Part shown: positions 10,737 to 36,800 of the stretch, piece by piece | Position numbering within the stretch: the first letter of the stretch is position 1 | Layout of the letters: every line of letters begins with the position of its first letter | Assembly (NCBI GenBank): GCA_903872035.1 | Contig: CAIQIZ010000021.1 | Location: 18,157 to 82,156, forward strand | Length of the DNA stretch: 64,000 nucleotides | Direction: 5' to 3' | Origin: an uncultured bacterium | GTDB lineage: Bacteria > Patescibacteriota > Minisyncoccia > Phycocordibacterales > PALSA-1337 | Position numbers and translations under genes: made by a program | The notes under the pieces: generated by a model | Told to the model about the DNA's origin: nothing | What the model saw: only the letters and a program-made list of their open reading frames with translations | Database searches by the model: none

Positions 10737-11543
10737 TCATTTTAGCGAATACCTGCTCCAACGGCGTTCACCTTCCTTTTTGACTATCCCCTTTTCTACT
10801 AATTCCAGCAATTCACGCTGGATCGTCTTCTGGCTGCAATCCTTGATGACTTTAGAGAAGTCCTTTATGGTCAAATTCGACTGCGTCTTTAGGACATTCA
10901 AAATCGTCTCCCGACGATTAGACTTTTTCTCTTGCAAACCACCTTGTCCTTTAGTGTATCGCTCTTCTCGGCCATTCTCCTGACTCCTAGCTCCTTGCTC
11001 TTGGCTCCTAGTGCTCCTACTGTCTGACTTGAACCCGCTGACAAATAAATCGGGTGTTTTGAAAAAAGACTCAGAAAGGACATAACCAGCCTTTTCGGCG
11101 CTCATAGCCAGACGATCTCGGAGCATAGATACGATGTTATCAATTTCACGGACCAACAGGCGATGATTCATCTCGGATACCAGATTGGAGATCCTGGCCA
11201 CATTCAATAGAGAGAGGGTTTCCAAGGCTGCAGTAAACAGTGACTGTATGACGATATTTTTATCGCCAGGCATAGAGCTTGATGCAGTGAAAGATGAGGA
11301 CAAAAGGTCAATACCACGATCACGCAATTCCCACTTGATAGGCTCATCGTCCTTTAGAAGTCCCGAGACCAAGTAAAGAGCAGCTGTAATCTTTTCTGTC
11401 TTTTTGAATATGTACAATAGGTATTCTTCCGCAGAGAAAAACCCCAATGTTTTCCAGTTCAATGGGTTATTGAAGGATTCTTGATTATTTGATTCTTTGT
11501 TGTCCATTATAGCTATAGGTCTGTCCTTTTGACGCCGAACCAC
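10737..11543 (-). CDS. Hypothetical protein with a C-terminal winged-helix HTH (putative transcriptional regulator). Carries an in-frame low-complexity repeat insert
   Basis: C-terminus TILNVLKTQSNLTIKDFSKVIKDCSQKTIQRELLELVEKGIVKKEG resembles a DeoR/wHTH domain. Internal tandem RSQEQGARSQENG is encoded by a CTCCTAGCTCC-type repeat at about 10965-11020. Confidence 0.5.
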   Translation of the reverse strand: MVRRQKDRPIAIMDNKESNNQESFNNPLNWKTLGFFSAEEYLLYIFKKTEKITAALYLVSGLLKDDEPIKWELRDRGIDLLSSSFTASSSMPGDKNIVIQSLFTAALETLSLLNVARISNLVSEMNHRLLVREIDNIVSMLRDRLAMSAEKAGYVLSESFFKTPDLFVSGFKSDSRSTRSQEQGARSQENGREERYTKGQGGLQEKKSNRRETILNVLKTQSNLTIKDFSKVIKDCSQKTIQRELLELVEKGIVKKEGERRWSRYSLK

Positions 11544-11622
11544 TTGTCCTATACAAAACGCGTGTTTTCCTTGTCCCTTATGTGTCCATTATAGTCGGAG
11601 TATGCTCAATTGCAAGCGGCTA

Positions 11623-11682
11623 CAGAAATCCTTCCGTTTGCCGTTGGCCCACAACGCTCAAACAGAAGGATTTCTTTCGCCA
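11623..11682. repeat. Palindromic repeat element, copy A (intergenic, upstream of ftsK): arms GAAATCCTTCCGTTTG / CAAACAGAAGGATTTC around core CCGTTGGCCCACAACGCT
   Basis: Shares the core GCCG(C/T)TGGCCCACA(A/G)CGCTC with copies at 48591, 50546, 51078 and 21198. Its inverted-repeat arms co-vary with copy B. Confidence 0.7.
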
Positions 11683-11724
11683 CGCTCATTCACTGGCAAC
11701 TGATAACACGATTTCTATTCTCAT

Positions 11725-14088
11725 ATGCTATTATTAGAGATTATGGCAAAGAAGAAAGAAAAGGACTTGGGAAAAAAGATCAGATTTTGGGATGAGATGC
11801 GCGATGAGACGGTACAGGTGATACTCTCCATATTCTCCTTCGTAATCACCATATTGACCTTGTTGGCGGCTTTTTATCATGGCGACAACAGTAACTATGC
11901 CGGTCCGATCGGCAACTTTTTCTATACTTATATGACAAAGCTTTTTGGCATCGGCTATTTCCTTGTTCCGATGGCTTTCGCCATGCTCGGTGTCTCATTC
12001 CTTCAAGGATTAAAGAAAAAGATAGAGATATCCAAGGTGCTCGGCGTCTTTCTCTTCTTCATCACCGGATTAGGCCTATTGAATATCGCCTACTCTGACG
12101 CTGGTGGCATAGTCGGTCGAACGATCGACTACCCGCTCGTGAAACTGCTCGATACCATTGCGAGCGCGATCCTCTTGGCCGCCATCCTCATTGTCGGAGT
12201 GATCATGACATTCAACTTGTATTTCACCTTCGCCGATCTACGAGAATGGAAAGAGGAAAGGAAGCTAAGACTGGAAGCAAAAGGTAAAAAGGAAGATGTC
12301 GGCAAAACAACCTCTGGTATAGACAAGAGCGAAGAGGAGTTCATAGCTCAAGCGGTAGCAAAGGCCAAGAGCGGTGGAGAATTGACGGCCCGAGAAGCCG
12401 AGGCGGCAGCTGCCAAAGCCCGTCTCGACGCAATGGAAAACAAGAAAGCAAAGACTGGAAAGCCTTTGGACACTGACGATCTTTCCGACTTCAAGACATT
12501 GGGGCTTTCGGCTGTCGCCTTGCCGCATCTCTTACCTTTCACTCCCCCACCTCTGACCTTGCTCGAAAAAGATCGTGGCAAGCCGGAGACCGGAGATATC
12601 AAAGCTAACGCTAATATAATCAAACGAACGCTGCAGAACTTCGGGATAACGGTAGAAATGGATGAGATTTCCATAGGCCCATCGGTCACTCGCTATGCCC
12701 TGAAACCGGCTGAAGGAGTGAAGCTCTCTCGGATAGTCACTTTGAACAATGATCTTTCCTTGGCTTTGGCAGCCCACCCTATCCGCATCGAAGCACCGAT
12801 CCCGGGAAAATCTCTGGTCGGCATAGAAGTACCGAACACTGCCAAGACTACCGTCGGATTGGCAACCCTTCTTTCCTCACCTGATTTTCAGGAATCAGAG
12901 AAGCCTCTATACATGTCGCTTGGTAAAGACATCACCGGAATGGCCCACTTCGCCAATCTAAGCAAAGCTCCACACATGCTCATCGCTGGAACTACTGGTT
13001 CTGGAAAATCGGTTACCATTCACGCACTTATAACTTCCCTCTTGTACCGCAACTCTCCCGAGAATATGAAGTTCATCATGATCGACCCAAAACGCGTGGA
13101 GCTGACTTTGTACAACAAGATTCCCCACCTTCTCACTCCAGTCATCACTGATCCAAAGAAGGCTATCCTGGCTCTGAAATGGGCAGCCAAAGAGATGAGC
13201 CGCCGATACGACATTTTGGAAAAGAACGCGGCTCGCGACATCGATTCATACCACAAGACGATCTTGGCGCCGGCATTGGCAGCCTGGAGCAAGGAGGAAG
13301 GAGCAAACAGGAAGAAGGAAGGGGATCCTGGCTCCTCACTCCTAGCTCCTAGCTCCTTGCCCGAGACAATGCCGTTCATTGTGATCGTCATCGATGAGTT
13401 GGCTGATATCATGCAGACCTACCCACGCGAACTGGAAGCAGCTATAGTTCGGTTGGCGCAGATGAGCCGGGCCGTCGGCATCCATCTTGTCATCTCCACC
13501 CAAAGACCGAGTGTCAACGTCATCACCGGTCTCATCAAGGCGAATATCCCTTCTCGCATCGCCCTACAAGTCTCTTCGCAGATCGATTCACGGACTATCC
13601 TCGATCAAATGGGCGCCGAAAAGTTGCTTGGCGCTGGCGATATGCTCTATCTGGGCGGCGAGATGTCCAAGCCGGTCCGCTTGCAATCAGCTTTCATCTC
13701 CGAATCTGAAGTCAAACGCGTCGTCAAATTCCTGACCGACCAATATCGCGACGAGATCATGAATGAGATCAACTTGACCCCGACAGAAGCCGGAGCTTCA
13801 GCTGCTTTCGATGCCATGACCGGAGACGACTCTCTGGAAGAGGAAGATGAGCTCTACGAGGCCGCTCGAGAAGAAGTCACCTCTGCCGGCAAAGCTTCAA
13901 CATCGTATATTCAAAGAAAATTGGGAGTCGGCTATTCGCGGGCCGCCAAGCTCATGGATCTCCTGGAAGAACATGGTGTCATCGGGCCTGCTAATGGATC
14001 TAAGCCTAGAGAGATCATCGGAGTCGGAGCAGGACTTGAGCAGGAAGTTCCAAAAATTGAAACTACTGAAACCACAGAAAGTTCATAA
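11725..14088 (+). CDS. ftsK: DNA translocase FtsK/SpoIIIE
   Basis: N-terminal TM helices; Walker A MLIAGTTGSGKSV; Walker B VIVIDELAD; C-terminal gamma wHTH domain. An in-frame low-complexity insert GDPGSSLLAPSSLP (nt about 13321-13362) is encoded by a CTCCTAGCTCC repeat. Alternative start at 11743. Confidence 0.85.
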   Translation: MLLLEIMAKKKEKDLGKKIRFWDEMRDETVQVILSIFSFVITILTLLAAFYHGDNSNYAGPIGNFFYTYMTKLFGIGYFLVPMAFAMLGVSFLQGLKKKIEISKVLGVFLFFITGLGLLNIAYSDAGGIVGRTIDYPLVKLLDTIASAILLAAILIVGVIMTFNLYFTFADLREWKEERKLRLEAKGKKEDVGKTTSGIDKSEEEFIAQAVAKAKSGGELTAREAEAAAAKARLDAMENKKAKTGKPLDTDDLSDFKTLGLSAVALPHLLPFTPPPLTLLEKDRGKPETGDIKANANIIKRTLQNFGITVEMDEISIGPSVTRYALKPAEGVKLSRIVTLNNDLSLALAAHPIRIEAPIPGKSLVGIEVPNTAKTTVGLATLLSSPDFQESEKPLYMSLGKDITGMAHFANLSKAPHMLIAGTTGSGKSVTIHALITSLLYRNSPENMKFIMIDPKRVELTLYNKIPHLLTPVITDPKKAILALKWAAKEMSRRYDILEKNAARDIDSYHKTILAPALAAWSKEEGANRKKEGDPGSSLLAPSSLPETMPFIVIVIDELADIMQTYPRELEAAIVRLAQMSRAVGIHLVISTQRPSVNVITGLIKANIPSRIALQVSSQIDSRTILDQMGAEKLLGAGDMLYLGGEMSKPVRLQSAFISESEVKRVVKFLTDQYRDEIMNEINLTPTEAGASAAFDAMTGDDSLEEEDELYEAAREEVTSAGKASTSYIQRKLGVGYSRAAKLMDLLEEHGVIGPANGSKPREIIGVGAGLEQEVPKIETTETTESS

Positions 14089-14117
14089 AGTCAGAAAGTT
14101 TTAAAGTTCGTAAAGTC

Positions 14118-14462
14118 ATGAAGATTGAAAGATTCGAAGACATAATAACCTGGCAGAAAGCTAAGGAACTTAGTTTGCTTTGTTATGTACTCTTTAAGAA
14201 CAATAAGGACTTTAAATACAGAGATCAGATACTATCTGCGGTTGTTTCTATTATGAATAATATCGCCGAGGGATTCGAAAGAAAAGGAAATGTGGAATTA
14301 AAACGATTCCTATTTATAGCAAAAGGTTCTTCGGGTGAAGTTAGATCTATGCTATATTTGGCCCTCGAATTGAAATATATTTCCGAGCAAGATTTTAATA
14401 AATGCTATAACCTTGCTTTAGATGTGTCCAAAATGCTTTCTGGCTTTATTAAGACTTTATGA
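14118..14462 (+). CDS. Four-helix-bundle protein of the 23S rRNA intervening-sequence protein / Avd family (PF05635, TIGR02436-like)
   Basis: ITWQKAKEL...NIAEGFERKG..ELKRFLFIAKGSSGEVRSMLYLALEL.YI matches the conserved pattern of the family. Flanked by inverted AAAGTT/CTTTATGAAC-type repeats at 14077-14117 and 14454-14500. Confidence 0.75.
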   Translation: MKIERFEDIITWQKAKELSLLCYVLFKNNKDFKYRDQILSAVVSIMNNIAEGFERKGNVELKRFLFIAKGSSGEVRSMLYLALELKYISEQDFNKCYNLALDVSKMLSGFIKTL

Positions 14463-14481
14463 ACTTTCTAACTTGTCACTT

Positions 14482-14907
14482 TACGAACTTATGACTTTGA
14501 CTCGCACCAACACCCTTCGTCTTATCCGATTCATCGGCATCGGTCTCATCGTGACATTAATAGTGGTTTACGCTATCTGGCGCTCTTTGAATTACGCCCG
14601 TGGACCCGAGATAGATGTCTTCGATCCGTCGAATGGATCTTCCATGAGTTCCTCAACAGTCGCTATCCATGGACGCGCCCTACGTGTAAATAACTTATTT
14701 TTGAATGGAAATGCGGTTTCGGTCGATCAGCAAGGCAATTTCAGCGAGACGGTCATCGTCTTTCCCGGCATGAACGTCCTTACATTGACCGGACAGGATC
14801 AATTCGGAAGGAATACAAGAAAAGAATTGGAAATCGTCGGAATGGTTAATCTACCGATGGCTCATTCATTGATCCCGCCTGTGACATCGACTAGCACGCA
14901 GCAATAG
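14482..14907 (+). CDS. Hypothetical membrane-anchored protein (the track ORF starts at 14422 and overlaps the upstream gene; the likely start is MTLTRTN at 14482)
   Basis: N-terminal TM LIRFIGIGLIVTLIVVYAIW, then a soluble domain. No recognisable family. Confidence 0.45.
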   Translation, partial: YELMTLTRTNTLRLIRFIGIGLIVTLIVVYAIWRSLNYARGPEIDVFDPSNGSSMSSSTVAIHGRALRVNNLFLNGNAVSVDQQGNFSETVIVFPGMNVLTLTGQDQFGRNTRKELEIVGMVNLPMAHSLIPPVTSTSTQQ

Positions 14908-15030
14908 TTCGTAAAGCTAGAAAGTTTGTAAAGTTCATAAAGCCTTTGAAAGCTGACTTTCGGTGCGATACTTTATGAACTTTTAAACTTGTAACTTTCA
15001 AACTTCTGCTGTTGTAACTTTTCATAAAAT
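14906..15030. repeat. Intergenic hairpin repeat of the AAAGTT / CTTTATGAAC family (solo inverted repeat without ORF)
   Basis: GTTTGTAAAGTTCATAAAG ... CTTTATGAACTTTTAAAC inverted repeat. The 10-mer CTTTATGAAC is shared with repeats at 14077-14117, 14454-14500 and 18464-18565. Confidence 0.6.
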
Positions 15031-15140
15031 GGTATTATTGCCATACGCCTGTACATTATTATTTTGCAAATATTCCTTCCATAACTCGAAGCCTGCTCGA
15101 GAACGGAAGGTATTTTGTAATTTCTAACAAGAATTAACCT

Positions 15141-16274
15141 ATGCCAGCAAATAAAATAGCGAGTACGAAATTGAAAACAAAAAATGAGGACGCTTCCCTA
15201 GTTACCGCCGACATTGTGCCGACCAAAGAAGCCGCCGAGACCGCCAATCAAAAAAAGGCAACCGATGCTGCCAAGAAAATCGTCGACCGCCAAGCAGCCG
15301 GCCAAGCCGGGATCAGAGATGCCCTAGATGCGATCCGCACCAAATTCGGCGAAGATTCGATAATGAAGCTGGGTGAAAAACCTAAAGTTAACGTCAACGC
15401 TGTACCGACCGGATCACTCGGCCTCGATTGGGCCTTGGGGATCGGTGGTATGCCTAGAGGACGCATTATAGAGATATTCGGTCCGGAATCGTCCGGCAAG
15501 ACTACCCTGGCGCTACACGTAGTCGCTGAAGCCCAAAAGCTCGGCGGCATTTGTGCTTATATCGATGCTGAACACGCCATGGACCCTGAGTACGCCAAGC
15601 GCTTGGGAGTAAAGATAGACGACCTGCTCATTTCCCAACCAGACACAGGTGAACAAGCTTTGGAGATCGTCGAGAGTTTGATCCGCACCGGCAAGATGGA
15701 CGTGGTCGTCATCGATTCCGTTGCCGCCCTAACACCTAAAGCTGAAATCGAAGGTGATATGGGGGCTCACCATATCGGAACTCAAGCGCGCCTAATGTCC
15801 CAAGCCCTCCGCAAACTTACAGCGATCGTGGCTAAGTCAAAAACCATAGTAATATTCATCAACCAGATCCGCATGCAGATAGGAGTGATGTTCGGCAATC
15901 CAGAAACGACTCCGGGTGGCAAGGCTTTGAAATTCTATGCTTCGGTCCGTTTAGACATCCGCCGTATAGCCCAGATCAAGAAAGGTGAAGAGATCATGGG
16001 TGGACGTTGCCGAGTCAAAGTCGTTAAGAATAAGGTTGCGGCGCCATTCAAGCAGACTGAATTCGATCTCATGTATAACGAAGGTATCTCTCAAGAGGGT
16101 GAGATCATTGCTCTTGGAGAGAAATATGAATTGCTTCAAAAGACTGGCTCTTCCTATTCATTCGGCGAAACTAAACTTGGACGCGGCTATGATGCTACTA
16201 GACAATTCTTGAAAGAGAATCCGAAAGTGCGTGAAGAGATTCTTGGTAAGATACGAGAAAAACTGAACGCGTAA
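15141..16274 (+). CDS. recA: Recombinase RecA (with an N-terminal extension of about 45 aa)
   Basis: [20 protein letters not shown] Walker A; L2/L1 loop regions; C-terminus conserved. The N-terminal extension precedes the canonical AL.AI..FG.DSIM motif. Confidence 0.9.
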
Positions 16275-16294
16275 ATCAAGATATCCAGACACTT

Positions 16295-16340
16295 CCCCAC
16301 CTCGCTTACCTACCAAATAAGTGGTGGGGTTTTGTCTTTT
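16295..16340 (+). terminator. Rho-independent terminator of recA
   Basis: CCCCACC...GGTGGGG stem followed by TTTTGTCTTTT. Confidence 0.75.
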
Positions 16341-16405
16341 ATGTCGCCTATGCTACTGTCTGGTCTGAACACCCAAACTGCACAATAAAAGAAAGTGAAC
16401 TCATT

Positions 16406-16798
16406 ATGAATTGCTCCATTATAGGTTGGTGGAACCAGCCTGATTTCCACACGCTAGCAATAGTCAAGAACCGCGCAGGAGTTGTGTCCATAGACAATTC
16501 ACACGTTTTTTCCGGGATTCTATTTGTCCACAAGGATGGCCACATCGACGAGAGCGTTTCCCTCTTGATCGACAAGAATGGCCTTGCAACGTTGTCGAAC
16601 GCAAGGATTGACCTTATAATCGGAACTATCTCGTTCATCAAAACATACGTGAGACGAAATGACTCTATTTTCTATCAAGCCTCCTACGTGGAGAAAGACC
16701 GCTGCTGGCGCGGCGAATTCAATGGCGAAGCGACCGGCCACGGAACAACAGCTTTCGTCATCCAGGAACTACCGGACTCTTTGTTCGTCGAAGATTGA
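16406..16798 (+). CDS. Hypothetical protein
   Basis: Longest ORF in the recA-efp gap. Antisense ORFs on the minus strand (16348..16641, 16520..16741) are shorter and overlap the recA terminator. No family recognised. Confidence 0.35.
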   Translation: MNCSIIGWWNQPDFHTLAIVKNRAGVVSIDNSHVFSGILFVHKDGHIDESVSLLIDKNGLATLSNARIDLIIGTISFIKTYVRRNDSIFYQASYVEKDRCWRGEFNGEATGHGTTAFVIQELPDSLFVED

Positions 16799-16936
16799 AG
16801 TTAGCACAGCCCGCCTTTGGGCAAATGGGGTGTTGAGTATCGACACCCCTTTTTTATTTACATTTTGCTTTTTCCTCTGAAACCGTATAGAATGGCTCAA
16901 TCACCTTATTATTCACCATTTACCCATCAATACACT

Positions 16937-17503: not shown

Positions 17504-17511
17504 GAAATAGA

Positions 17512-17663
17512 AGCTCAGCAAACAAAGTCTTCGAGCCGAGTCGCAATGCGATTTGAGCCATGAACAAATTGCCCGTATGTGCTGAATCCTTGGAAGCACA
17601 TACGGGTGCAATTTGGAATGGCGACCTTGCGAGGAGGTGAGAAGACCTTGTTTGCTGAGCTTA
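17512..17663. other. About 150-nt near-perfect extended palindrome in the efp 3' region (nested stems; inner perfect 12-bp hairpin CCCGTATGTGCT/AGCACATACGGG)
   Basis: Outer arms AGCTCAGCAAACAAAGTCTTC (17512-17532) and GAAGACCTTGTTTGCTGAGCT (17643-17663). Inner stem CAAATTGCCCGTATGTGCT-GAATCCTTGGA-AGCACATACGGGTGCAATTTG (17565-17615). Confidence 0.5.
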
Positions 17664-17694
17664 AGATTTTTGCGCTAGAACTCATCGAGGATTA

Positions 17695-17722
17695 GAAAAA
17701 TCCCCTGCCCGGGGATTTTTCG
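17695..17722. terminator. Bidirectional rho-independent terminator between convergent efp(+) and rpsR(-)
   Basis: GAAAAATCCCC-TGCCC-GGGGATTTTTC: perfect 10-bp stem with A/T runs on both sides. Confidence 0.8.
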
Positions 17723-17754
17723 TGTCTCTGAATGACCACCTCCGCAAGTTTCAC

Positions 17755-17958: not shown

Positions 17959-17979
17959 GTTGATGATTTGATTATAGGA

Positions 17980-18463: not shown

Positions 18464-18565
18464 TTATTTATAAGTTAGAAAGTTTACAAGTTTGAAAGTT
18501 GCAAGTTATTTTATGCCGGACTTTATGAACCTTCTAACTTGATGAACTTTATAAACTGTTAATGT
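18464..18565. repeat. Intergenic AAAGTT / CTTTATGAAC-family hairpin repeat between rpsF and ssb
   Basis: AAGTTAGAAAGTT ... AACCTTCTAACTT inverted repeat plus CTTTATGAAC / GATGAACTTTATAAAC. Confidence 0.55.
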
Positions 18566-25377: not shown

Positions 25378-26361
25378 CTATTTTCGTGCCTTCATACCCA
25401 ATGATGAAACAATCTTATGTGTATTTCCATGCTTTAGCATTCCCAGATATGAAGCAACCGTCGCCGGCTTTGGATTGTTTAGGAGGGCCTTAATCATTCG
25501 ACGTTTTGTAGTTGTGCGCAATATTCTATGACTGGGAAAATTGATCCACCCGAGAAAATCGATACCGGATGAGTATGTCGCGATAGAGACTTTATCAGGA
25601 TGCAGATCCAGCAAGAGATTCTGTTTCAGAAACGCGCGGATATGTTTCAAAACTTCCTCGATAACGGCTCGGTCGGTATTCATGACAATGAAGTCATCCG
25701 CGAACCGTATGTAATATTTCTCCTTAACCTCGTGCTTCATATACTGGTCAAATTCATTCATGAAAATATTGACCAGCAGTTGAGAAGTCAGATTCCCAAG
25801 CGGCAATCCCTTGCCGGGGATCACCGAATCGAAGCTCTCGACGATTCTTCTCAATAACCAGAGCGTGTCATCGCCGACGTTATGTCGCTTTACGACCTCA
25901 AACAATCGCGCATGATCAATGGAGGCGAAGAATTTTCTGACATCGCATTTTAGGACCCAGCAGGTTTGACTATCATTTCGGCTAGCTCTCCGATATAGCT
26001 CCAGAAACCTTCTTATAGCTTTATGGGTTCCTTTTTCATTCCGGCATGAATAAGAATCGTGGATGAACAGCCTGTTAAAATATGGATACAATACCCGGTA
26101 AACGGCGTGATGAAGAAGTCTATCTCGAACAGTCGCTTTGTGAATCTTTCTAGGTTTTGGGTCGGAAATGTTGAATTCCTCATAGCCGCCGTGTTCGTAC
26201 GTCCTATCTTTCAGATCCGCGTGCAAATCAAATATATTTTCTGACAAATGCATGGAAAATTCCATAACGTCCTTCCGACCACTTTTGCCACATAAAAATT
26301 CCTGCCATGCGACAAAAAGGTTATCCGGCGATATAATTGTTTGGTATAGATCTATATACAC
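25378..26361 (-). CDS. DGR reverse transcriptase
   Basis: RT motifs: PKPRKIHKATVRDRLLHHAV (motifs 1/2). Motif 4 is GLPLGNLTSQLLVNIFMNEFD, with the DGR-specific [ILV]GxxxSQ in place of QGxxxSP. Motif 5 is YIRFADDFIV. Thumb motif GIDFLGW. Confidence 0.85.
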   Translation of the reverse strand: MYIDLYQTIISPDNLFVAWQEFLCGKSGRKDVMEFSMHLSENIFDLHADLKDRTYEHGGYEEFNISDPKPRKIHKATVRDRLLHHAVYRVLYPYFNRLFIHDSYSCRNEKGTHKAIRRFLELYRRASRNDSQTCWVLKCDVRKFFASIDHARLFEVVKRHNVGDDTLWLLRRIVESFDSVIPGKGLPLGNLTSQLLVNIFMNEFDQYMKHEVKEKYYIRFADDFIVMNTDRAVIEEVLKHIRAFLKQNLLLDLHPDKVSIATYSSGIDFLGWINFPSHRILRTTTKRRMIKALLNNPKPATVASYLGMLKHGNTHKIVSSLGMKARK

Positions 26362-26407
26362 ATTCTCTCATGATGCCCCCCCCCCGCAATCAAAAATACC
26401 GACAGTC

Positions 26408-26764
26408 GTGCATAAGCAAAAAGAAGCATATTCATTATGGGTCAGGCTTCATCACAATTTTCCCCGGACAGAACGGCTCGGTCTTGGCCGGAAAATAGAC
26501 TCGGCCTTTCTCGATCTCTTGGAATGGACATTTGTCGGCGCGTACCTGCCTCCTGAACAAAAGATCCCTGTTTTGAACAAGGCCATGACAAGGCTGGATA
26601 TCGTAAAGTTCTTTACGCAAATATCGTGGGAAAACAAGCTTATACAAAACGAGCAATACATAGCACTATCTCTCATGTTAGAAGAAATCGGTCGACAGCT
26701 CGGCGGCTGGAAGAAAGGCCTGCAAACAAAACTCCCCAACCTTGAGCCGGGGAGAAAGACTTGA
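26408..26764 (+). CDS. avd: Accessory variability determinant (Avd) four-helix-bundle protein, encoded antisense to TR/RT. GTG start proposed; the track ORF starts at ATG 26252 and would overlap the RT start
   Basis: EAYSLWVRLHHNFPRTERLGLGRKIDSAFLDLL...IALSLMLEEIGRQLGGWKKGL matches the Avd pattern (...FP..E...LG.QI.....LL.....EVGRMLGGW). The stop at 26764 abuts the TR. Confidence 0.6.
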   Translation: MHKQKEAYSLWVRLHHNFPRTERLGLGRKIDSAFLDLLEWTFVGAYLPPEQKIPVLNKAMTRLDIVKFFTQISWENKLIQNEQYIALSLMLEEIGRQLGGWKKGLQTKLPNLEPGRKT

Positions 26765-26768
26765 GTTT

Positions 26769-26876
26769 CGGGAGAACACCTGGTTGCCATCATTCCACCT
26801 GTTCGGATTCTCAACCGGATTCGCGTTCACGTTCCAGCCGTCGTCGTACCAGTTCACGTTGACCGCGCGGAGCACA
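26769..26876 (-). repeat. DGR template repeat (TR)
   Basis: 108 bp, 81% identical to VR. All 20 differences are plus-strand T in TR (A on the minus/coding strand). TR translates to Asn-rich AVNVNWYDDGWNVNANPVENPNRWNDGNQVFSRNS. Confidence 0.85.
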
Positions 26877-27188
26877 CCGGAGTTCATCGTACACGAGACC
26901 ATCCGCATCACCGCCCACCAAACCATGATGAGCTGAATCTTGTTCGGGACATCGAAGTCCTCCAGTCCCATGCACCAATTCTATTCTTTTTTGAAGAGAC
27001 CTTCCCCACTCTCGCGCGAGGCCTGACCGTCAACAAGGAGTTATACCCAACGCGACTCTCGAAGAAAATATCCTAAAACCATGACGCGGAAGCCATGTCC
27101 GCCGCGTGCCGCATGATTTCAGCATTAGTATATCACCCAATAGGTAATTCCGTTGAACCAGGTCATATACAAAAATTGACCCCCGCCT

Positions 27189-27206
27189 GCCTCCGCCAGC
27201 TGGCGG
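27189..27206. repeat. Perfect 18-bp GC-rich palindrome CTCCGCCAGCTGGCGGAG, about 87 bp downstream of VR. Candidate DGR homing hairpin. A second copy lies at 28273-28290
   Basis: Self-complementary 18-mer. Identical 17/18 copy inside the glyS 3' end. Confidence 0.5.
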
Positions 27207-27243
27207 AGCAAACAGAGGGTCAAAGTGTCCGAGGAACAAAGGA

Positions 27244-27993
27244 TCAGGCTGTCGCCGGAACCGGAGTTTCCGAGGGTTTGAGAGCGGAATTGCGGGAGAA
27301 CACCTGGACGCCACCATCCCACCCGCACGGATACCCAACCGGACCCGCGAGCACGCCCCAGCCGCCGCCGTACCAGCACACGTCGACCGCGCGGAGCACA
27401 AACCATTGATCTTTGATCTCAAATAGGTACTGCGAATCCTTGACCTCTTCAAAGATCTCCCTTCCTTCAAGGCCAACGTAGCTGAAACGCTTGTCATCGA
27501 GTTTCTTCACCGGTTGGGGGATGTAGCGGATATTCGCATACCCGTTAGTCAGAAGCAGACCAGCGGCGCTTTTGGGACCGTCCTGTTGATTCTCCATGTC
27601 GCGGAACATTTCACCAAGAGAAGAGACGGCTTTGGGCACACCGCCCAGCTCGAGGATAATGTCCTTGTCATACATGTACCTGGGCAAGGTGAAGACGTTG
27701 GGTGCCTTCGTCGGCGGGAGATCTTCAACCGTGTTCCAGAACCAATTCATGAAGTTGTTCCGGACTTCGCAGATCTTCACCTTAGCATTGCGGCTGGTGT
27801 CGACCTTGAAGTGATCCCTGACAACAAACTTGCCTTGATTCCAAGATTGAGAAGCGAGCCAATCGGTCAGAGGTCCTTGAAGGCGACCGGACTTAGCCGC
27901 ATCAATAATGTTTTGAGGGACGAGATCTGTCCGATTCCAGTTGACACAGGTTATGAGAGTCGCACCGGCGGTTGCTATCGTTTGATTATTCAT
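27244..27993 (-). CDS. DGR target (variable) protein with C-terminal C-type-lectin/FGE-like fold carrying the VR
   Basis: The C-terminus LRAVDVCWYGGGWGVLAGPVGYPCGWDGGVQVFSRNS is encoded by the VR. The TR encodes the same frame with Asn (AAC) at the variable positions. Confidence 0.8.
   Translation of the reverse strand: MNNQTIATAGATLITCVNWNRTDLVPQNIIDAAKSGRLQGPLTDWLASQSWNQGKFVVRDHFKVDTSRNAKVKICEVRNNFMNWFWNTVEDLPPTKAPNVFTLPRYMYDKDIILELGGVPKAVSSLGEMFRDMENQQDGPKSAAGLLLTNGYANIRYIPQPVKKLDDKRFSYVGLEGREIFEEVKDSQYLFEIKDQWFVLRAVDVCWYGGGWGVLAGPVGYPCGWDGGVQVFSRNSALKPSETPVPATA
27293..27400 (-). repeat. DGR variable repeat (VR) at the 3' end of the target gene
   Basis: Aligns base-for-base with TR 26769..26876 (offset 524). 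The mismatches are confined to TR-adenine positions. Confidence 0.85.
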
Positions 27994-29529: not shown

Positions 29530-29553
29530 ATCGATATCTTATACCAAAGAAGA

Positions 29554-31503
29554 CTATCTTACTACCGACTCATTCCCAACCTGATATCTCGGGTCTGTAC
29601 TGAACCGTGTGGTCAAAACATCCTGCTTGCTCTCCAGCTGGGCCCCAGTGAAATTATCAGTGGCCGTGAGAGTCGACTGGTTGACCAGGGTCGGGATCTG
29701 GCCGATCTGGGTGACGCTCGGAGTTATCGATATTTGGAATGCTACCTCCCTCCTGTGCGACGAATTCAAAGTATAAGTCCCGACATTCCCTAGATTCCAA
29801 GTGATCGTGCCACTATGGGTATCATAGGTGACATTTTCCGAACTAGGACTGACTGTATTCAACCACTTCACATAAGCCGGCAAAGTTGCGGTCACCTGCG
29901 CCTTACTTATGGCGTTCGAAGTATTATCGACATCCCAGATGACTGTATAAGTTGTGGCCCTTTCAGCTCTAGGTGGGACCAGTCCGCTATTCGCGAACGG
30001 GCCGACCGTGCGCACCATTCGGCCAGAAAGCGAAACGTTGGAAGAGATCCTCACGTTCTTAGTCACAGCCGAAGTCAGTATGGACGGTACATTGGCTTCC
30101 TGGGCACGATTTCCCATGACACTGACCGCGAAGTTCAAAGTCGGATTGACGACCGGACTATTGGGAGTACCGAGATCCTTTGGTGTGATGGTAAACGAGA
30201 TGTGACCAGTATCACCAGCCGCAACTGAGGCAAATTCGTTGTTGGTCTGCTCATTCCAGACGATCTGATTGTTGAGCGAATCGAATATTCCCTGCCCAGA
30301 CTGTACGTCGTTCTTGCTATATGCCGTTCCCGACAGTTTGATAGTTATGCTCATATTGGAAAGAGAAACCGGCAGATTGTTAGACCAGTTGACGACCACG
30401 CGTTCATTTGAATTGAATTGTCCAACATGGTCGTTATTGGTAGCGTCGTTATCCACAGTAACGCCCATTGAAATGAATGGCTTCTGAATGGTCATATCCT
30501 GCTCGACGACCATATATTCCGTTCCGACGCTCTTTGGATCGGACGGGCTCGATGCACCGACAGTGAAATGAAAAGCCCGAAGATCGCTATCTTCGCCTGT
30601 AAGTTTGCCATGAACAATGATCACCCGATTCCCACCGGCCGGAATATCGCCGATCTTCCATGTGGCATTATCGGAAAGCGCTGGAAAACTTGAGCTCATA
30701 TATGTATAACCGAACGGATAAGCAGCTTTGAGGAGAACATTCTTCAATACTTGCTGAGAATTTGATTTGAGGTCTACCTTCATATCGAATTCCTGACCAG
30801 AAGTTATCTCTTTGAATGAAGTCACCGTCACGTTGATCGGCGAGGAATTGATGAGGACATCATAAGACTGGACCTTGGTGAAGGTAGACGAAGTGCCCTT
30901 GACTCCATAGGTCAAAGTAGCTTTGATCGTCTTCTGCAAATTTGCTTCGCCGAAAATGATGACACTGACACTCTCATGTATCGTGCTGCCAGCCGGAATA
31001 TCGCCGATCATCTTATCTAGATTGGTGAGCGGCGTACCTGGCTTATCTGGATCAGTGGCACCAGATGGAAAGTCCACAGACATGTCGGCCAACTGCAAAG
31101 CCACATTATTCTTGTTCTGAATGGTCACATCGAATGTGGCCGGGACTCCCCCAGGAATGGAAACTGGTCCGCTTATGACGATATTGATGTTGTTAGCAGA
31201 GATCAGATTGGCGCCATTGAAGAACAGATACGCGCCGATCCCAACTGCAATGACGCAGAATATGGCGGAGATGATGAGGAGTTTGCTGAAGAATGACATA
31301 TGATGCTCTTGGTATTCCGGATTCAAGGTCTTCGGCCGGACATCTTCTTCCTTTGGATGTTCCCAATCCGTCTTGACCTCGGTCACCGGCTCGGTGAATC
31401 GAAGCTTCCTCTTGGTGCGCACTTCAGGCGCCGTCCGAGAGTACAGCGACTTCTTCAATTCTTCAATGTAGCTTTTGTCTTCCTGAGGAGGCACAGACGT
31501 CAT
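29554..31503 (-). CDS. Hypothetical membrane-anchored cell-surface protein (N-terminal cytoplasmic segment, one TM, large beta-rich ectodomain)
   Basis: TM FFSKLLIISAIFCVIAVGIGAYLFF at residues about 70-95; the remainder is S/T/N-rich. Confidence 0.5.
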   Translation of the reverse strand: MTSVPPQEDKSYIEELKKSLYSRTAPEVRTKRKLRFTEPVTEVKTDWEHPKEEDVRPKTLNPEYQEHHMSFFSKLLIISAIFCVIAVGIGAYLFFNGANLISANNINIVISGPVSIPGGVPATFDVTIQNKNNVALQLADMSVDFPSGATDPDKPGTPLTNLDKMIGDIPAGSTIHESVSVIIFGEANLQKTIKATLTYGVKGTSSTFTKVQSYDVLINSSPINVTVTSFKEITSGQEFDMKVDLKSNSQQVLKNVLLKAAYPFGYTYMSSSFPALSDNATWKIGDIPAGGNRVIIVHGKLTGEDSDLRAFHFTVGASSPSDPKSVGTEYMVVEQDMTIQKPFISMGVTVDNDATNNDHVGQFNSNERVVVNWSNNLPVSLSNMSITIKLSGTAYSKNDVQSGQGIFDSLNNQIVWNEQTNNEFASVAAGDTGHISFTITPKDLGTPNSPVVNPTLNFAVSVMGNRAQEANVPSILTSAVTKNVRISSNVSLSGRMVRTVGPFANSGLVPPRAERATTYTVIWDVDNTSNAISKAQVTATLPAYVKWLNTVSPSSENVTYDTHSGTITWNLGNVGTYTLNSSHRREVAFQISITPSVTQIGQIPTLVNQSTLTATDNFTGAQLESKQDVLTTRFSTDPRYQVGNESVVR

Positions 31504-31628
31504 TGTACAACAATATGACCTCCCTGCTAAGCCATTCGAGGTGCTTGAACCACCAATTATTTTGTGTTATAATTATAAAAGCTAAAAATAACCGTCAATG
31601 AACGGTCAATAAAGGAAAGGAGTGCACT

Positions 31629-32195
31629 TTGAATTCTGACATAATGTTCTGGGTATTCATTCTAAGTATACCGACCTTGGCCGTCGCCATCTTCGAGATC
31701 AACCTGGATATGAAGCACAAGGTAGGTCCGTGGGGTAAGACTAAATTCAAAAACCCGTACTGGGAGGAGAAGATCCTCCAGAGATGGCCGATCCCTTTCA
31801 TCAAGTACATCTCGCGGTATCACGCCGTCTTGTTCTTGGAGGTGCTGCCTGTGGTATTCACACTGAGCATCATTTTCTGGAGCTGGGCGCTCAACTATGC
31901 TGTATGGCCGAGCGACTCATCTCGACTCATCAAATCGCTATCTTTCATCACACTATTCATCGCAGTCTGGCTAGGCAATTCCGGATTCGAGGACATGTTT
32001 TACTTCATAATCCAATCTTTGACTGGCTGGCACGAGCCTCATGCCTTGCGCAAAGTGGTGCTAGAGAAAGACTTCGACTGGTTCAAGGATTGGTTACCAC
32101 CGATCTTCGGATTGAACATTCCGGGGCATTGGGTGTTCTGTCCCGCCGCAGCATTGTTGCTGCTTTACATCCGACACCATTGGATAATGCAGTGA
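31629..32195 (+). CDS. Hypothetical polytopic membrane protein
   Basis: 188 aa with 4-5 TM segments; no family recognised. Confidence 0.45.
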   Translation: MNSDIMFWVFILSIPTLAVAIFEINLDMKHKVGPWGKTKFKNPYWEEKILQRWPIPFIKYISRYHAVLFLEVLPVVFTLSIIFWSWALNYAVWPSDSSRLIKSLSFITLFIAVWLGNSGFEDMFYFIIQSLTGWHEPHALRKVVLEKDFDWFKDWLPPIFGLNIPGHWVFCPAAALLLLYIRHHWIMQ

Positions 32196-32345
32196 AGCAA
32201 CAAACTTTTCTCGCTCGCCTTCCAGGCCCATCTGGTCGGCGATTTTATTTTATGAGACACATTTAATGCTGCCAGGTACGACCCGTGATATCATTTTGAT
32301 TAGAAATTCAATCATCTCTTTTGCTTTAAGGTTCGTATTCTCACT

Positions 32346-33089
32346 ATGAAGATCAATATCGCAACCATCAATCTCCAATCGGGCGTAGCCACAACAAAAG
32401 GCATCCTTCATTATGTTCTGACTGGTTGGAAATACTGGTTGCCTCATTCAGATAGACCGATCCGACAAGCTGGAGAAATGTTGAAACAAGAAGAAATAGG
32501 CATCGCGTGTGTAACCGAAATCACAGAGAAGTCATTGCGATCGGGATTTCGATCACAAACAGAAACCTTGGCGACCAGTGCTGATTTAAATAATTGGAAT
32601 TTCTTCTCTTCACAAAAGCTCGGCAAATTCTTTTTTTATGAGGGCAATGCTTTGCTTTCTAAATATCCGATTTCTCATCCGATCTCACATCCCCTGCACA
32701 TCGAACTCAATATGCGCATGGCTTTGGAAGAAGCGACCGTTGAAATTCAAGGCCAAAAGATTTCCATTTTCATCGCCCACCTTGCTCTTACCAAGCGTGC
32801 TCGCCAAATCCAAATCAGTGAAATCATTGAAATACTTGAAGATCGAACTGGCCCTATTATTCTAGCCGGTGACTTCAATGAAAGGCGCCCGGGAGCACTT
32901 GATATACTCCTTCAACAAACTCCTCTCAAACAAATATGCACTCTGAAGACTTATCCTTCGTGGGATTCTAAATACTCGTTAGATTACATACTCCTAAGTA
33001 AAGAGTTTACGGTTCTCGACTGCCATATCCCTAATAGCCCGGCTTTTTCAGATCATTCGCCACTAATAGTCAAAGCGGAGCTCAATTAA
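32346..33089 (+). CDS. Endonuclease/exonuclease/phosphatase (EEP) family protein
   Basis: IILAGDFNE and C-terminal SDHSPLIV motifs of the EEP fold. Confidence 0.7.
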   Translation: MKINIATINLQSGVATTKGILHYVLTGWKYWLPHSDRPIRQAGEMLKQEEIGIACVTEITEKSLRSGFRSQTETLATSADLNNWNFFSSQKLGKFFFYEGNALLSKYPISHPISHPLHIELNMRMALEEATVEIQGQKISIFIAHLALTKRARQIQISEIIEILEDRTGPIILAGDFNERRPGALDILLQQTPLKQICTLKTYPSWDSKYSLDYILLSKEFTVLDCHIPNSPAFSDHSPLIVKAELN

Positions 33090-33099
33090 CAAAATCCAA

Positions 33100-33732
33100 T
33101 TACATCATCGACTCTTTCAATGCCTTATTTATATGTTTGTTGAGGATCGTCCGCTTCTCTTTAAGCAGATCGACCAGATCACTAGTGATCTCAAACGACC
33201 GGATGTGGCCGCTCAGTTCCAAATCATCGCCGATGTAACCCAGCCAATGAAGGATGCGCGCGACCGTCAATGATTCGATAGCGGCCAATTGAGCAGCATT
33301 CAAATCTTCACGCTCACCAACAAAGTCCACGCAAGCTTTTATAACATCGAACACTTCAGGGTGTGCTTCTTCACCTTGAAGTAACCGTCTCAAGAGCTGC
33401 GCCAGCCTTGCGATTAAACTTTGAGAAATGGCCATTTCGCCCCCGCTTCGCGGATGGACTTTCCCCGACTGCGTAGCACGAAGGGGAAACGTCCGGAGCG
33501 AAAAGGGGGCGGCAGATGTGAGCCGCCACATCTCCCTTCCCTTTACGAGCGAAAACATTCCCATTGCGTGTTCTTGGGTATAGTATCGCAGCTTTGATCT
33601 CTCCAGACGGATCCCTTGGGCAGCAGCCATTATCAGACCAAATTCACGTGTGAATATGAAAAGCATCTTCCCTGCTTCTCCATAAGGTCGTGCTTGGATT
33701 ATGAATCCTGGAGTTGTGTGAATGTGATGCAT
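33100..33732 (-). CDS. recO: DNA repair protein RecO-like (short form) with an internal hairpin-rich insert
   Basis: N-terminal OB-fold PGFIIQARPYGEAGKMLFIFTREFGLIMAAAQGIR resembles RecO. Nucleotides 33440-33550 contain nested palindromes (GGACTTTCCCC...GGGGAAACGTCC; AGATGTG...CACATCT). Confidence 0.5.
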   Translation of the reverse strand: MHHIHTTPGFIIQARPYGEAGKMLFIFTREFGLIMAAAQGIRLERSKLRYYTQEHAMGMFSLVKGREMWRLTSAAPFSLRTFPLRATQSGKVHPRSGGEMAISQSLIARLAQLLRRLLQGEEAHPEVFDVIKACVDFVGEREDLNAAQLAAIESLTVARILHWLGYIGDDLELSGHIRSFEITSDLVDLLKEKRTILNKHINKALKESMM

Positions 33733-33804
33733 AGGTTATGCGCAAGGAAACGTTACGGCGAGAGCGCTGTGGTAGAGCGGCGAGCCGGAATGTTTCCTTG
33801 CGCA

Positions 33805-36800
33805 TTACTTCTTAATATCAAACTTCTCACCAAATTCAATAGCTGACAAGCGGGTAGCCGCTTTGATAGCTTGTTCGTTCTTACTGATCAAAGATTTCAT
33901 GTCTTCCGTCGCGACCAATACCGCCATATCGTTGACCGTCAATCCTTTCTCTTTGCGGAGGTCTTGGATCTTACGGAGCAATTCGCGGAGCTCGCCTTCT
34001 TCTTTAAGCTCAGGAGTAAGGACAGTATCCAATTCGACATCGGTTTCCATACCACCGTCGAATACAACTTCTTTTACATTAACTTCATCTGTTATGAGCC
34101 CAAGGAGTTCAGAATTTAAATCCTTAATTTTTGAATCCTTAATTTTTAACTTACCCAATGGTTGACGTACATTTATCTTTGCCGTCATCCTGGCTTCTAA
34201 ACCTTTGGAAGCGATAGACCGGACTAATTCCATGCTAGTCAATAATTTCTCATCGACTTTCCCTGCTTTCGGCCATTCTTCGAGGTGTACGCTTTCTTTT
34301 TCGCCTCCAACGCCTTGGTACAAGAAGTCAGCAAAGAAAGGCGTGAGCGGCGCCATGACTTTCGCCAATGATTGCAACACGAATTGTGTGGTAGCCAAAG
34401 CCGCTTGCTTGTCTTCAGCATTTTCTCCTTTGAATCGGTCGCGGGAACGTCGAAGATACCATTGGGAAAGATCTCCGACGAAATCTCGAATCGCTCGTGC
34501 AGGTTCGAAGAATTTGTAGTTGTCCAATCCGGTGGTCGTGGTTTCTATGAGCTGATTGAGTCTGGCGACGATCCACCGATCTAGAACATGAGATGTATTT
34601 GAAAGCTTGAAAATGTTTCCGGACCGAGCGCTGTGGGCCAGCGGCGAGGCGGAAGTATTTTCAAGCGATTCATCCACATATAGCTTATAGAACGACAGCA
34701 CATTCCCCGCCAAATTAAAGACCTTTTTATTTATCTCATCCACAGTCTTCTGATCAAAATTCTTGGAATCACCAGGCTGATTGACAGAATACATCCAGAA
34801 CCGCAGCGCATCAGCTCCATAGGCGTCCATCATCTCGAAAGGATTGACGACATTGCCGATAGATTTCGACATCTTCTTTCCTTGAGGATCGAGGATATGA
34901 CCGAGGCAGATGACATTCTTATAAGCCTTGCCTCTGCCCATGAGCACCCCGACTGCGTGCAATGTGTAGAACCATCCACGCGTCTGATCTATGGCTTCAG
35001 AAATAAAATCAGCTGGGTATGGGAATTTCTCCTTGCCGATCAAGCCGTGTTCTTTGCCACCAAGAACATGATCCTGGGCAAAAGGCATAGACCCGCTATC
35101 GAACCAGACATCCATGACTTCTTTGACTCGGCTCATTTCTCCACCACATTCGCAGGTCAATTTTACTTCGTCTATATAAGGACGGTGAAGGTCGAGCTCA
35201 AAATCAGGATTGTGAGGAAGGATCGAAAAGTCGAGTTTCCTAGCTTCCGCTTTTTGAACATACTTCAACTTATTCCAATCAGCCGCCTCGCTCTTTTCTA
35301 GTCCAGCGGCGGCACTGATAAGCATCATAGCCGGACATCCGTGAGTAACGATCAAAATCGTACGGCCTTGATATTTATTCTCCATTTCATAGAGGAAATC
35401 TCCGACCCTCTTTCTGACATCTCTCCAACTCTCAACCCCATCATCAGCCTTATTGAATCTGTCTTCGTTTATCGGAAACTTCTTATCGAATTTCGCCATA
35501 TCCTTGCCTTCCCAAGAGCCCATCCCCATTTCACGGACTCGCTCATCGACGATAACCTGCCCAGCTTTGAGACCGAGCGTATCAGCGACAAGATGGGCGG
35601 TCTCTTTGGTCCGCATGATCGGTGAAGTTATCACCAAATCTATCCCTGATTTTTTTAAGGCTTCGGCGGTTTTTGATACGTTTTCTTTACCCAACGCAGT
35701 CAAATGGCTCACCATCTCCAAACCGCTGTTCAAAGTCATTTTTACATTATTCTCCGCCTCGCCATGCCGCATAACATAGTAAGTATTGCGCGGCTTCTTG
35801 GAGACATCAGCCACTGATCCAGCAACTTTCCATTTCTTGCATTTGTCGCAAACCCAGACTGGTAAAGGCGTACCCCAATAGCGCTCGCGGGAAATGGCCC
35901 AATCCTTGACTTCGCGGAGCCATTCACCAAAACGACCTTCCTTTATATGCTCCGGCTCCCAATTGATGCCTTCATTTTCTTTGACCAGCTTGTGCCGCAA
36001 GTCCGACATTTTGATGTACCACGAATCACGGGCAAAATAGATGAGCGGTGTGTGACAGCGCCAACAGAAAGGATAGGTGTGCTCGTATTTTTCTTTACTG
36101 AATAGGATGCCACGGTGCGCCAAGTCTTTGATGATCTCCACGTCGGTCGCCTCATTCTTGACGAATTTGCCGGCCAAAAATCCAGCTTCATTTTTGAAAG
36201 TACCGTCTTCTTTTACCAGATGATATTTCGGCAGGCCTACCTTCGTGCCCAATTCAAAATCGTCCTGACCATACATTACAGCGGTGTGCACTATTCCAGT
36301 CCCATCTTCAGTAGTGACAAAATCAGCAGGATATACTTTGTAAGCATTCGACAGCTTCTCTTTTTCCGGACCGGAAATAGATTCTTTGAGAAATGGATAA
36401 AGGGGTTCGTATGAGAGACCGACCAATTCTTTGCCTTTGAAGGTCTCGATTATTTCCGGCTTCGTGTCTTTAAAAACTGCCTCCAGGCGATTTTTGGCAA
36501 GAATGTATGTCGTGGTCGCGTTTTTTGAATCTCCTTCCTCCTTACTGCTTCCTTCTTCCTCCATTTTTCTAACTTTCACATAATCGATCTTCTCCCCTAC
36601 CGCCAAGCCAACGTTGCCCGGCAATGTCCACGGCGTCGTCGTCCAAGCCAACAAATAGGTCTCGCTTGATCCTTCCTCCTTACTGCTCCCTCCTTCCTGC
36701 TTCAAGACCTTGAATTTCACTGTGACTGAAAGATCCTTGACCGTCTCATATCCTTGCGCCAATTCGTGCGACGACAAAACAGTTTGGTCATGAGGACACC

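Follow-up and report, generated by a model that had tools for sequence, protein, structure and literature searches.

According to the passages of two papers (PMC4679880, PMC4692102) that cite Mrazek 2007, heptanucleotide repeats are the commonest long simple-sequence repeats (SSRs) in most prokaryotic genomes, slippage tied to the polymerase footprint is their proposed cause, and unit lengths that are a multiple of 3 are the likeliest in coding regions. Genome-specific heptamers, with inverted pairs and rare copies inside genes, have been described from Xanthomonas, Nostoc and the Beggiatoaceae (PMC4692102, PMC4679880). Here we describe repeats of this length in a 64,000-nt stretch of bacterial DNA (the window), where Glu/Gly/Ser/Lys-rich segments of ftsK, of the isoleucyl-tRNA synthetase (IleRS) gene ileS, of a gene for a helix-turn-helix (HTH) protein and of a gene for an S-adenosylmethionine (SAM)-dependent methyltransferase are no ordinary low-complexity sequence: they consist of short tandem arrays with a unit of 7 bases, AAGGAGG or CTAGGAG, that have partly decayed. 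The window comes from the Paceibacterota/Parcubacteria group of the Patescibacteria (candidate phyla radiation, CPR), near Candidatus Taylorbacteria, to judge from the organisms named as sources of its closest homologs for IleRS and FtsK.

As summarized in the citing papers, the prokaryotic heptanucleotide SSRs of Mrazek, Guo & Shah (2007) resemble these arrays in their tandem 7-nt units, the excess of period 7, the units that differ between genomes and the proposal of slippage. The well-described heptamer SSRs treated there are mainly intergenic, whereas 13 of the 17 arrays that we counted lie in frame in housekeeping genes, and they are short (3-14 units) and decayed. The GGGAATC and GGGGA(T/C)T repeats (Xanthomonas, Nostoc), the cyanobacterial short tandemly repeated repetitive (STRR) sequences and the TAACTGA repeats of the Beggiatoaceae likewise give each genome its own heptamer at many sites. 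They sometimes occur as hairpin-capable inverted pairs, like the two arms of the ftsK segment, and the few Beggiatoaceae arrays inside genes take the stop-free orientation, like the arrays here (PMC4692102, PMC4679880). Unlike the latter, all these repeats are overwhelmingly intergenic, often form G-quadruplexes and are discussed as regulatory; their hosts and units are different too.

Rickettsia palindromic elements (RPEs) are in-frame repeats in essential genes that add surface peptide without destroying function. Miniature inverted-repeat transposable elements (MITEs) of Coxiella are similar to the arrays in that they are short repeats in frame in essential genes, where they add surface peptide and spare function (PMC5896051). 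However, RPEs and MITEs are palindromic units of 100-150 nt with conserved sequence and ends, whereas the arrays are tandem 7-mers without ends; a palindromic family with core GCCGCTGGCCCACAGCGCT, also present in the window, is the better analogue of RPEs. Phase-variable contingency loci, such as the 7-bp repeats of hmw1A in Haemophilus influenzae, share slippage-prone short tandem units, but theirs are long, perfect on/off tracts that are polymorphic in populations, whereas the arrays here are imperfect, fixed in length within the population and located in essential genes (PMC8262952). The growth of low-complexity segments by proliferation of short repeats in prokaryotes also lengthens loops, but its units are mostly 1-5 bp or amino-acid runs, and a 7-nt register read in three frames is not described there (PMC10120016). 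In the literature we found no account of heptamer arrays that routinely lie in frame within essential genes of CPR bacteria. The prokaryotic excess of heptanucleotides is already known; what is new is the routine in-frame residence of heptamer arrays in essential genes. The arrays belong to a known class of bacterial repeats, of which they are an unusual form in coding regions; they are not a demonstrated new mobile element.

Heptanucleotide arrays in the window

AAGGAGG units make up the left arm of the ftsK segment, two arrays in ileS (ileS_1 and ileS_2) and one in the methyltransferase gene (MT_a), and CTAGGAG units make up the HTH-gene array and the right arm of the ftsK segment. Tandem Repeats Finder (TRF) gives a period of 7 for six sites of the window (3.1-5.3 copies) and a period of 14 for ileS_2. 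Scanning the window for (AAGGAGG)3, we found 7 arrays with up to 5 mismatches, where 0.73 are expected, and 4 with up to 4 mismatches, where 0.03 are expected. The matches are the sites listed in the initial annotation of this DNA, which include ileS_2 and the HTH-gene array, plus two more: the left part of the ftsK element and, in the methyltransferase gene, a weak tract; MT_a matches without a mismatch and the ftsK left arm with 2. The 16-mer CCTTCCTCCTTACTGC from ileS has 7 matches in the window when 3 mismatches are tolerated, where 0.28 would be expected. Purine or pyrimidine tracts of at least 22 in 24 nt are confined, within the window, to the array sites and a charged linker of ftsK, and among short periods autocorrelation is strong for 7 and 9 only. 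The arrays are 73-84% regular, with one perfect tract of three units.

The best non-self match of every array within the window is another array. The two ileS arrays, 138 nt apart, are identical at 27 of 29 nt (93%), including a non-consensus AGCAGT, and 22 of 24 nt agree (E 1e-4) between the HTH-gene array and the right arm of ftsK, which lie 2.3 kb apart and match on one chromosomal strand. The left arm of ftsK finds its best match in ileS_1 (30 nt, 83%, E 0.004) and also matches ileS_2. MT_a and ileS_2 align over 36 columns at 86% (E 6e-6), which bears out the initial annotation in relating the string beside the palindromic element, at 51137-51165, to the ileS copies. Altogether the window holds 7 arrays in 64 kb, and the closest pairs are all neighbours.

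The strings and peptides quoted earlier are all present at the positions given, and a related string lies at 51128-51165, next to a palindromic element: ftsK 13321-13362 encodes GDPGSSLLAPSSLP, the array region of the HTH gene (~10975-11018) encodes RSQEQGARSQENG, and the ileS copies encode (E)EGSSKEEG at 36528-36564 and (G)GSSKEEG at 36664-36699. A 13-mer common to the HTH gene and ftsK had also been noted. Taken alone it is insignificant (10 of 100 shuffles do equally well when 2 mismatches are tolerated, and by our estimate ~100 shared 13-mers are expected by chance per 64-kb window), but the extended match of 22 in 24 nt is significant. CTCCTAG and CTAGGAG had also been called palindromic; they are mutual reverse complements, and only their CTAG core is a palindrome.

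Arrays read in the purine sense code for peptides rich in E, G, K, R and S, and antisense arrays for peptides rich in S, L, P and A. The CTAGGAG-type unit gives unrelated peptides in its two orientations, RSQEQGARS in the HTH gene and SSLLAPSSLP in the ftsK right arm, which argues for an origin at the level of DNA and against one at the level of the peptide. Successive units of a heptamer array fall in all three frames, three units (21 nt) making seven codons. For comparison we used other stretches of Paceibacterota DNA, labelled L001, L002, L149 and so on; in one of them, L151, the 21-nt period is more regular (90-95%) than the 7-nt period (82-86%). The units CTAGGAG, CTCCTAG and AGAGATT hold TAG in one frame, and the arrays are substituted exactly at the position where this stop would be in frame. 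The reading frames of all array-bearing genes are intact.

The initial annotation had placed the ftsK element at 13321-13362. This right half is real, but the left half, 13279-13325, had been missed. The two arms form an imperfect inverted repeat about GGATCC at 13323-13328, with 24 nt on each side (13281-13304 and 13331-13354) that are 79% complementary; their folding has a z of about -2 relative to shuffles, and as RNA they would pair with -39 kcal/mol. In the third unit of the right arm, TTG (in TCC TTG) stands where an in-frame TAG would fall. The ftsK gene of the relative L002 keeps the inverted purine/pyrimidine layout, with heptamer arrays that are rich in purines in the left arm and in pyrimidines in the right arm. 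The same layout was seen outside genes in a metagenome contig (Ga0209697_10000289; L143, 6119-6213), where CAAGGAG..AAGGAGG and, after it, a perfect (CTCCTTC)4.7 form an inverted heptamer pair in the space that separates the stop codon of a gene for an RRM-type RNA-binding protein from the next gene; this pair is arranged as inside ftsK, yet it is non-coding and hairpin- or terminator-like.

Table 1. Genes, arrays and other repeats of the window (positions in the 64,000-nt stretch)
Feature	Position	Strand	Description
HTH gene	10737..11507	-	256-aa protein, weak C-terminal DeoR-like HTH match; within ORF 10737..11543(-)
ftsK	11725..14088	+	
ileS	33805..37419	-	
SAM-dependent methyltransferase gene	50478..51494	-	
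HTH-gene linker array	10975..11018	-	CTAGGAG type, degenerate; codes ..RSTRSQEQGARSQENG..; TRF period 7 x4.0 at 10984-11011
ftsK left arm	13279..13325	+	AAGGAGG-type array, coding sense; codes WSKEEGANRKKEG; TRF period 7 x5.3 at 13286-13322
ftsK right arm	13326..13362	+	CTCCTAG array (CTAGGAG units antisense); codes PGSSLLAPSSLP; TRF period 7 x4.6 at 13326-13357
ileS array 1 (ileS_1)	36528..36570	-	AAGGAGG type; IleRS residues ~285-301, MEEEGSSKEEGDSKN; TRF period 7 x4.6 at 36531-36562
ileS array 2 (ileS_2)	36660..36706	-	AAGGAGG type; IleRS residues ~240-252, QEGGSSKEEGSS; TRF period 14 at 36675-36701
Methyltransferase site a (MT_a)	51128..51165	-	Three perfect AAGGAGG units, RKEEGGR; TRF period 7 x3.1, 100% identity, 51134-51155
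Methyltransferase site b	50595..50617	-	Weak AAGGAGG-like tract, IEEGG, beside second palindromic element; scan match with 5 mismatches
Intergenic heptamer array	10330..10358	.	TGAAAAT x4 (TRF)
Main palindromic family	11620-11681, 33753-33790, 34617-34654, 48588-48649, 50547-50608, 51081-51142		Core GCCGCTGGCCCACAGCGCT, variable outer stem
Diversity-generating retroelement (DGR)	25378-27993		
DGR reverse transcriptase gene	25378..26361	-	RVT_1 (Pfam E 2e-27)
DGR template repeat (TR)	26763-26876		
DGR variable repeat (VR)	27287-27400		At 3' end of ORF 27244..27993(-)
Intergenic arrays of period 8-9 nt (also 16, 25)	14077-14136, 14457-14498, 14906-14942, 18467-18557, 47238-47269		ACTTTAT/ATAAAGT-like motif

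Array sites in orthologs and relatives

Both ileS segments are missing in all 59 aligned orthologs (the nearest at 74% identity) and in the PDB IleRS 8c8w, in agreement with the earlier view that other IleRS proteins lack these positions. At array 2 the gap relative to the nearest ortholog, P0002, is 7 aa, or 21 nt. The two sites are hypervariable loops in which other lineages carry inserts of their own, and an AlphaFold2 model of IleRS residues 190-470 (mean pLDDT 82) predicts coil loops between beta strands at array 1 (block pLDDT 52) and at array 2 (block pLDDT 62). From the alignments we judge the IleRS segments to be insertions. The same protein also contains, at residues ~541-736, an internal histidine-phosphatase domain of ~195 aa (phosphoglycerate-mutase family, PF00300), which lies between the CP1/editing part and the KMSKS half; this architecture is common to 120 of the 120 best homologs, all from Patescibacteria.

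The ftsK and HTH segments had been described as insertions as well. The nearest relatives do not support this: their segments at these places are equal or longer, except for an HTH linker in L002 that is 8 aa shorter. The FtsK segment is part of a loop that precedes Walker B. This loop varies in 60 of 60 orthologs and is equally long in Pseudomonas FtsK; in the nearest relatives it has the same length (L001) or is longer (L002), the L002 loop having heptamer arrays on both arms, with units AGAATGG and ACTCCTT. At the HTH linker, L001 has (CCCGGAG)3, equal in place and length, and the shortening in L002 amounts to 24 nt. Presence or absence at orthologous sites is seen for ileS, whereas for ftsK and the HTH gene the relatives hold homologous tracts; at one and the same locus, related genomes differ in length (the ftsK loop and the HTH linker of L002) or in unit (the HTH array of L001). 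On this comparison, the ftsK and HTH tracts are old, remodelled loop and linker segments and not clean or fresh insertions.

Residues 114-142 of the methyltransferase form an insertion that PDB 2igt and most homologs lack. They comprise the heptamer array MT_a and an element of the main palindromic family (51081-51142), to which MT_a lies directly 5'. The methyltransferase array sites also vary among homologs; site b is mostly native coding sequence, its GELAIEEGG aligning with native residues of 2igt and homologs. The broader claim of the initial annotation, that essential genes of this genome have taken up several classes of in-frame repeat, stands as far as the sites are absent or variable in orthologs; the repeats themselves are of one heptanucleotide class and do not fall into several unrelated low-complexity classes.

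In 30 genes compared with those of syntenic relatives we counted 18 in-frame insertions, each specific to the window and at least 4 aa long, with recO, argS (25 aa) and glyA among the genes that carry them (examples lie at 33451-33486, 39139-39213 and 40196-40228). One of the 18 falls in a heptamer array, in ileS, and one other flanks the ileS palindromic element. The other ileS array is not among them, as it is masked by residues in the relatives.

Heptamer arrays in relatives consist of 3-14 copies of the 7-nt unit. The ileS gene of L149 carries AAAGGAA x4.3, AAGGGAAG x2.5, AGATCCA x5.6 and AAATCTC x4.7; that of L150 carries AAATTCG x9.4 and AAGTCAG x10, with GTCAGAA x14.3 (also written GTCAGAA/AGTCGAA) in argS of the same genome; and L151 has AGAGATN x12.6 and x9.7 in ileS and x8.7 in recO. 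The L151 arrays had been anticipated from protein: the 7-aa repeat IRDERLE in the homolog P0057 was predicted to be a 7-nt array in DNA, and the L151 DNA, fetched afterwards, has AGAGATN arrays. The prediction came from lag-7 periodicity in the proteins of 390 homologs, an insensitive measure, since 3-5 units make only one 7-aa period. Arrays recur across genomes at four or more loops of IleRS, the fourth of which holds a palindromic element instead in the window, and the peptides at shared loops differ by relative (KSQISNTKSQ, IRDERLE, KSEVGSQ).

When arrays with 3 or more copies were counted by period across 152 kb of Paceibacterota DNA, there were 1 for period 4, 3 for period 6, 17 for period 7, 1 for period 8 and 3 for period 9, so that period 7 accounts for 17 of 25; a Markov-2 null gives 0.05 period-7 arrays. 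Array coordinates set against gene calls place 13 of the 17 period-7 arrays in coding sequence. Intergenic heptamer arrays exist besides the coding ones, and L001 has ATTGAAA x3.1 upstream of its own HTH ortholog, comparable to the intergenic TGAAAAT array of the window (Table 1). The trait is not special to this genome: in-frame period-7 arrays, with other units, also occur in ileS, argS and recO of other Paceibacterota.

A scan of contigs for AAGGAGGAAGGAGGAAGGA found at least 120 stretches in many phyla, so that perfect AAGGAGG arrays are widespread, although the list of taxa may reflect database order; among the matches listed, ~59% lie in open frames of at least 600 nt, by a crude test, and some are apparently in frame in proteins. 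One example is a 909-aa ORF of Dyadobacter sp. OTU695 (L076) that contains a perfect (AAGGAGG)~3 block, translated in frame as KEEGGRR; the alanyl-tRNA synthetase-like motifs of this ORF were read by eye from TPFYAEMGGQVGDTG alone. In-frame heptamer triplets in aminoacyl-tRNA synthetases may therefore occur beyond CPR too. Three metagenome contigs met by chance through an 18-mer of ileS (L136, L140 and L144) each have 4-5 separate period-7 arrays of unrelated units, for example CCCGGTA x12.9, AAAGTTA x8 and AATTAAC x4.9, which suggests that some genomes are prone to heptamer repeats.

Origin of the arrays

The arrays, their excess, their location in solvent-exposed loops and linkers of variable length and their turnover between relatives are matters of observation. 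We think it probable that the segments are heptanucleotide SSRs inside genes that originate by slippage or copying and persist as frame-filtered neutral passengers. Replication slippage, or template switching, on 7-nt units would create arrays and alter them, and new arrays would be seeded by short-range copying from an existing array, the opposite strand included. Copying onto the opposite strand would explain the inverted pair in ftsK. Selection would retain only those arrays whose net length is a multiple of 3 and which lack an in-frame stop; such selection would leave behind arrays that are decayed, have 21-nt super-periods and carry point changes exactly at would-be stops. On this view the arrays would be tolerated passengers that lengthen flexible loops, with no function required. 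The likeness of AAGGAGG to a Shine-Dalgarno (SD) sequence is probably incidental, and the phenomenon is clade-wide and most likely neutral.

Several points weigh against this model. Slippage by a single unit shifts the frame, which makes stepwise growth in an essential gene awkward, and arrays may arrive pre-formed. Units are also shared across genes of one genome: AAGGAGG over 38 kb of the window, AGAGATN between ileS and recO of L151, and AGTC(A/G)AA between argS and ileS of L150. Such sharing is not expected if arrays are born purely in situ, and it hints at dispersal. Among cluster members of at least 90% identity, a small sample, we saw substitutions only and no length variants of FtsK, the HTH protein, IleRS or the methyltransferase, so that ongoing slippage is unseen. 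The clade sample amounts to only ~150 kb, from loci picked via ileS and ftsK, and the metagenome 'control' loci for TRF are invalid, because they were chosen by a heptamer-like pattern and several are heptamer-rich.

The initial annotation read the segments as copies of a small mobile element, similar to an RPE or MITE, that inserted in frame and spread through the genome. This we regard as unlikely. Such an element would accord with the lineage specificity of the ileS segments and their 93% identity to one another, AGCAGT included, with the TTGAAGCAGG..AAGGAGG that MT_a and ileS_2 have in common, with unit types that are genome-specific and recur in several genes, and with the true in-frame palindromic family that the window hosts. 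However, the arrays do not look like discrete mobile insertions: they have no defined ends, their edges differ between copies, and terminal inverted repeats are lacking at ileS and the HTH gene and occur in ftsK only. The apparent shared boundary TTGAAGC.. is in part native methyltransferase coding sequence (IEAG aligns with VETA of 2igt). At ftsK and the HTH gene, relatives have arrays in orthologous positions with other units and equal length, which fits turnover in place better than insertion, and related pairs in the window are all close neighbours. In metagenome contigs, the ileS 18-mer gave 20 unrelated single matches, near chance expectation and some at ordinary SD positions, and no dispersed copies.

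A further possibility, which we likewise consider improbable, is an active process that plants genome-specific, pre-formed 7-nt arrays in multiples of 21 nt into permissive loops of essential genes. Template switching, or repeat addition at breaks driven by a reverse transcriptase or polymerase, may be candidates for it. Such a process is compatible with the data because unlinked genes share a unit and because stepwise 7-nt growth in an essential gene is difficult. If it were true, array planting would be a 'mobile microsatellite' that continuously remodels protein surfaces.

It is more doubtful that protein-level selection for flexible, acidic, glycine-rich loops produced the segments, with DNA periodicity as a by-product. 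SKEEG does appear in one reading frame in both ileS arrays and in ftsK, and KEEGG in the methyltransferase; every site is a surface loop; and purine-rich codons are limited to K, E, G and R. Yet the same DNA unit, antisense or in other frames, also gives the unrelated peptides of the ftsK right arm and the HTH gene, relatives fill equivalent loops with different units and peptides, and heptamer arrays occur between genes. An exact 7-nt register would not be expected from selection on the peptide.

We give still less credence to the idea that the AAGGAGG arrays are functional, either as internal SD-like sites that bind the 16S 3' end and pause the ribosome or as regulatory mRNA hairpins. AAGGAGG and UAAGGAGG are perfect SD complements, 7 of the 11 exact AAGGAGG heptamers in the window fall in arrays, and the ftsK arms are able to pair as RNA, in an inverted layout that L002 keeps. 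But relatives use non-SD units in equivalent loops, so that SD identity is dispensable, an SD-like motif precedes only ~6 of 61 window genes, and the folding z of the arms is modest, at about -2. By eye, we found no ATG, GTG or TTG at SD spacing (5-10 nt) downstream of the ileS arrays. The SD-like motifs of the window stand upstream of 6 of its 61 ORFs of at least 100 aa, and the conserved recA, nusG, rplK, rpsF and efp are without them, which suggests SD-independent initiation in the genes of the window. Rfam and tRNA scans of the window found nothing, and the 16S rRNA gene lies outside it.

Metagenome assembly can mis-join short repeats, but an assembly or sequencing artefact of low-complexity sequence can practically be dismissed, as identical IleRS, FtsK, HTH and methyltransferase proteins occur on 19-26 contigs of independent NCBI, JGI, ENA and Logan assemblies and the frames are intact.

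Other repeats of the window and significance of the arrays

The main palindromic family is intergenic at two or three of its sites; its in-frame copies are one in ileS (ASPLAHSARSG) and two in the methyltransferase gene (GRNGSGxSxVGQRxTGxVPDD). Its core, with up to 4 mismatches, was not found in ~60 kb of the closest relatives that carry arrays. The initial annotation had tied the in-frame repeats to this family; its absence from array-bearing relatives rules out the link and indicates that the two phenomena are independent and merely share permissive sites. The family looks like a recent, lineage-specific spread.

The window also contains a DGR (Table 1). Its TR and VR form a 114-nt pair with 81% identity, in which each of the 25 core mismatches sets an A of the TR against a different base of the VR (16 A>G, 5 A>T and 4 A>C), and the cassette is absent between the equivalent flanking genes in the relative L147/L148. 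The sequences of the DGR and the arrays are unrelated, and we rejected a link between them. Intergenic arrays of period 8-9 nt flank small genes, with the motif forms AGTTCATAA, ACTTTATGA and ACTTTAAAG; they recur in the distant relative L151, at 1548-1596, as ATAAAGTCT x5.4.

By itself the finding of heptamer arrays in genes reveals no new molecular machine. Proteins of CPR/Patescibacteria often have lineage-specific insertions whose origin is rarely examined, and here the source at the DNA level is 7-nt arrays, translated in all three frames and filtered by frame and stop codons. In IleRS, ArgRS, RecO, FtsK and further housekeeping proteins, such arrays repeatedly fill equivalent permissive loops. 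For alignment and annotation, the resulting 7-aa repeats and purine-rich inserts in universal marker genes are a pitfall. The arrays extend the known heptanucleotide excess from intergenic DNA to essential coding sequence, and they offer a concrete, testable mutational route to the growth of loops in reduced genomes.

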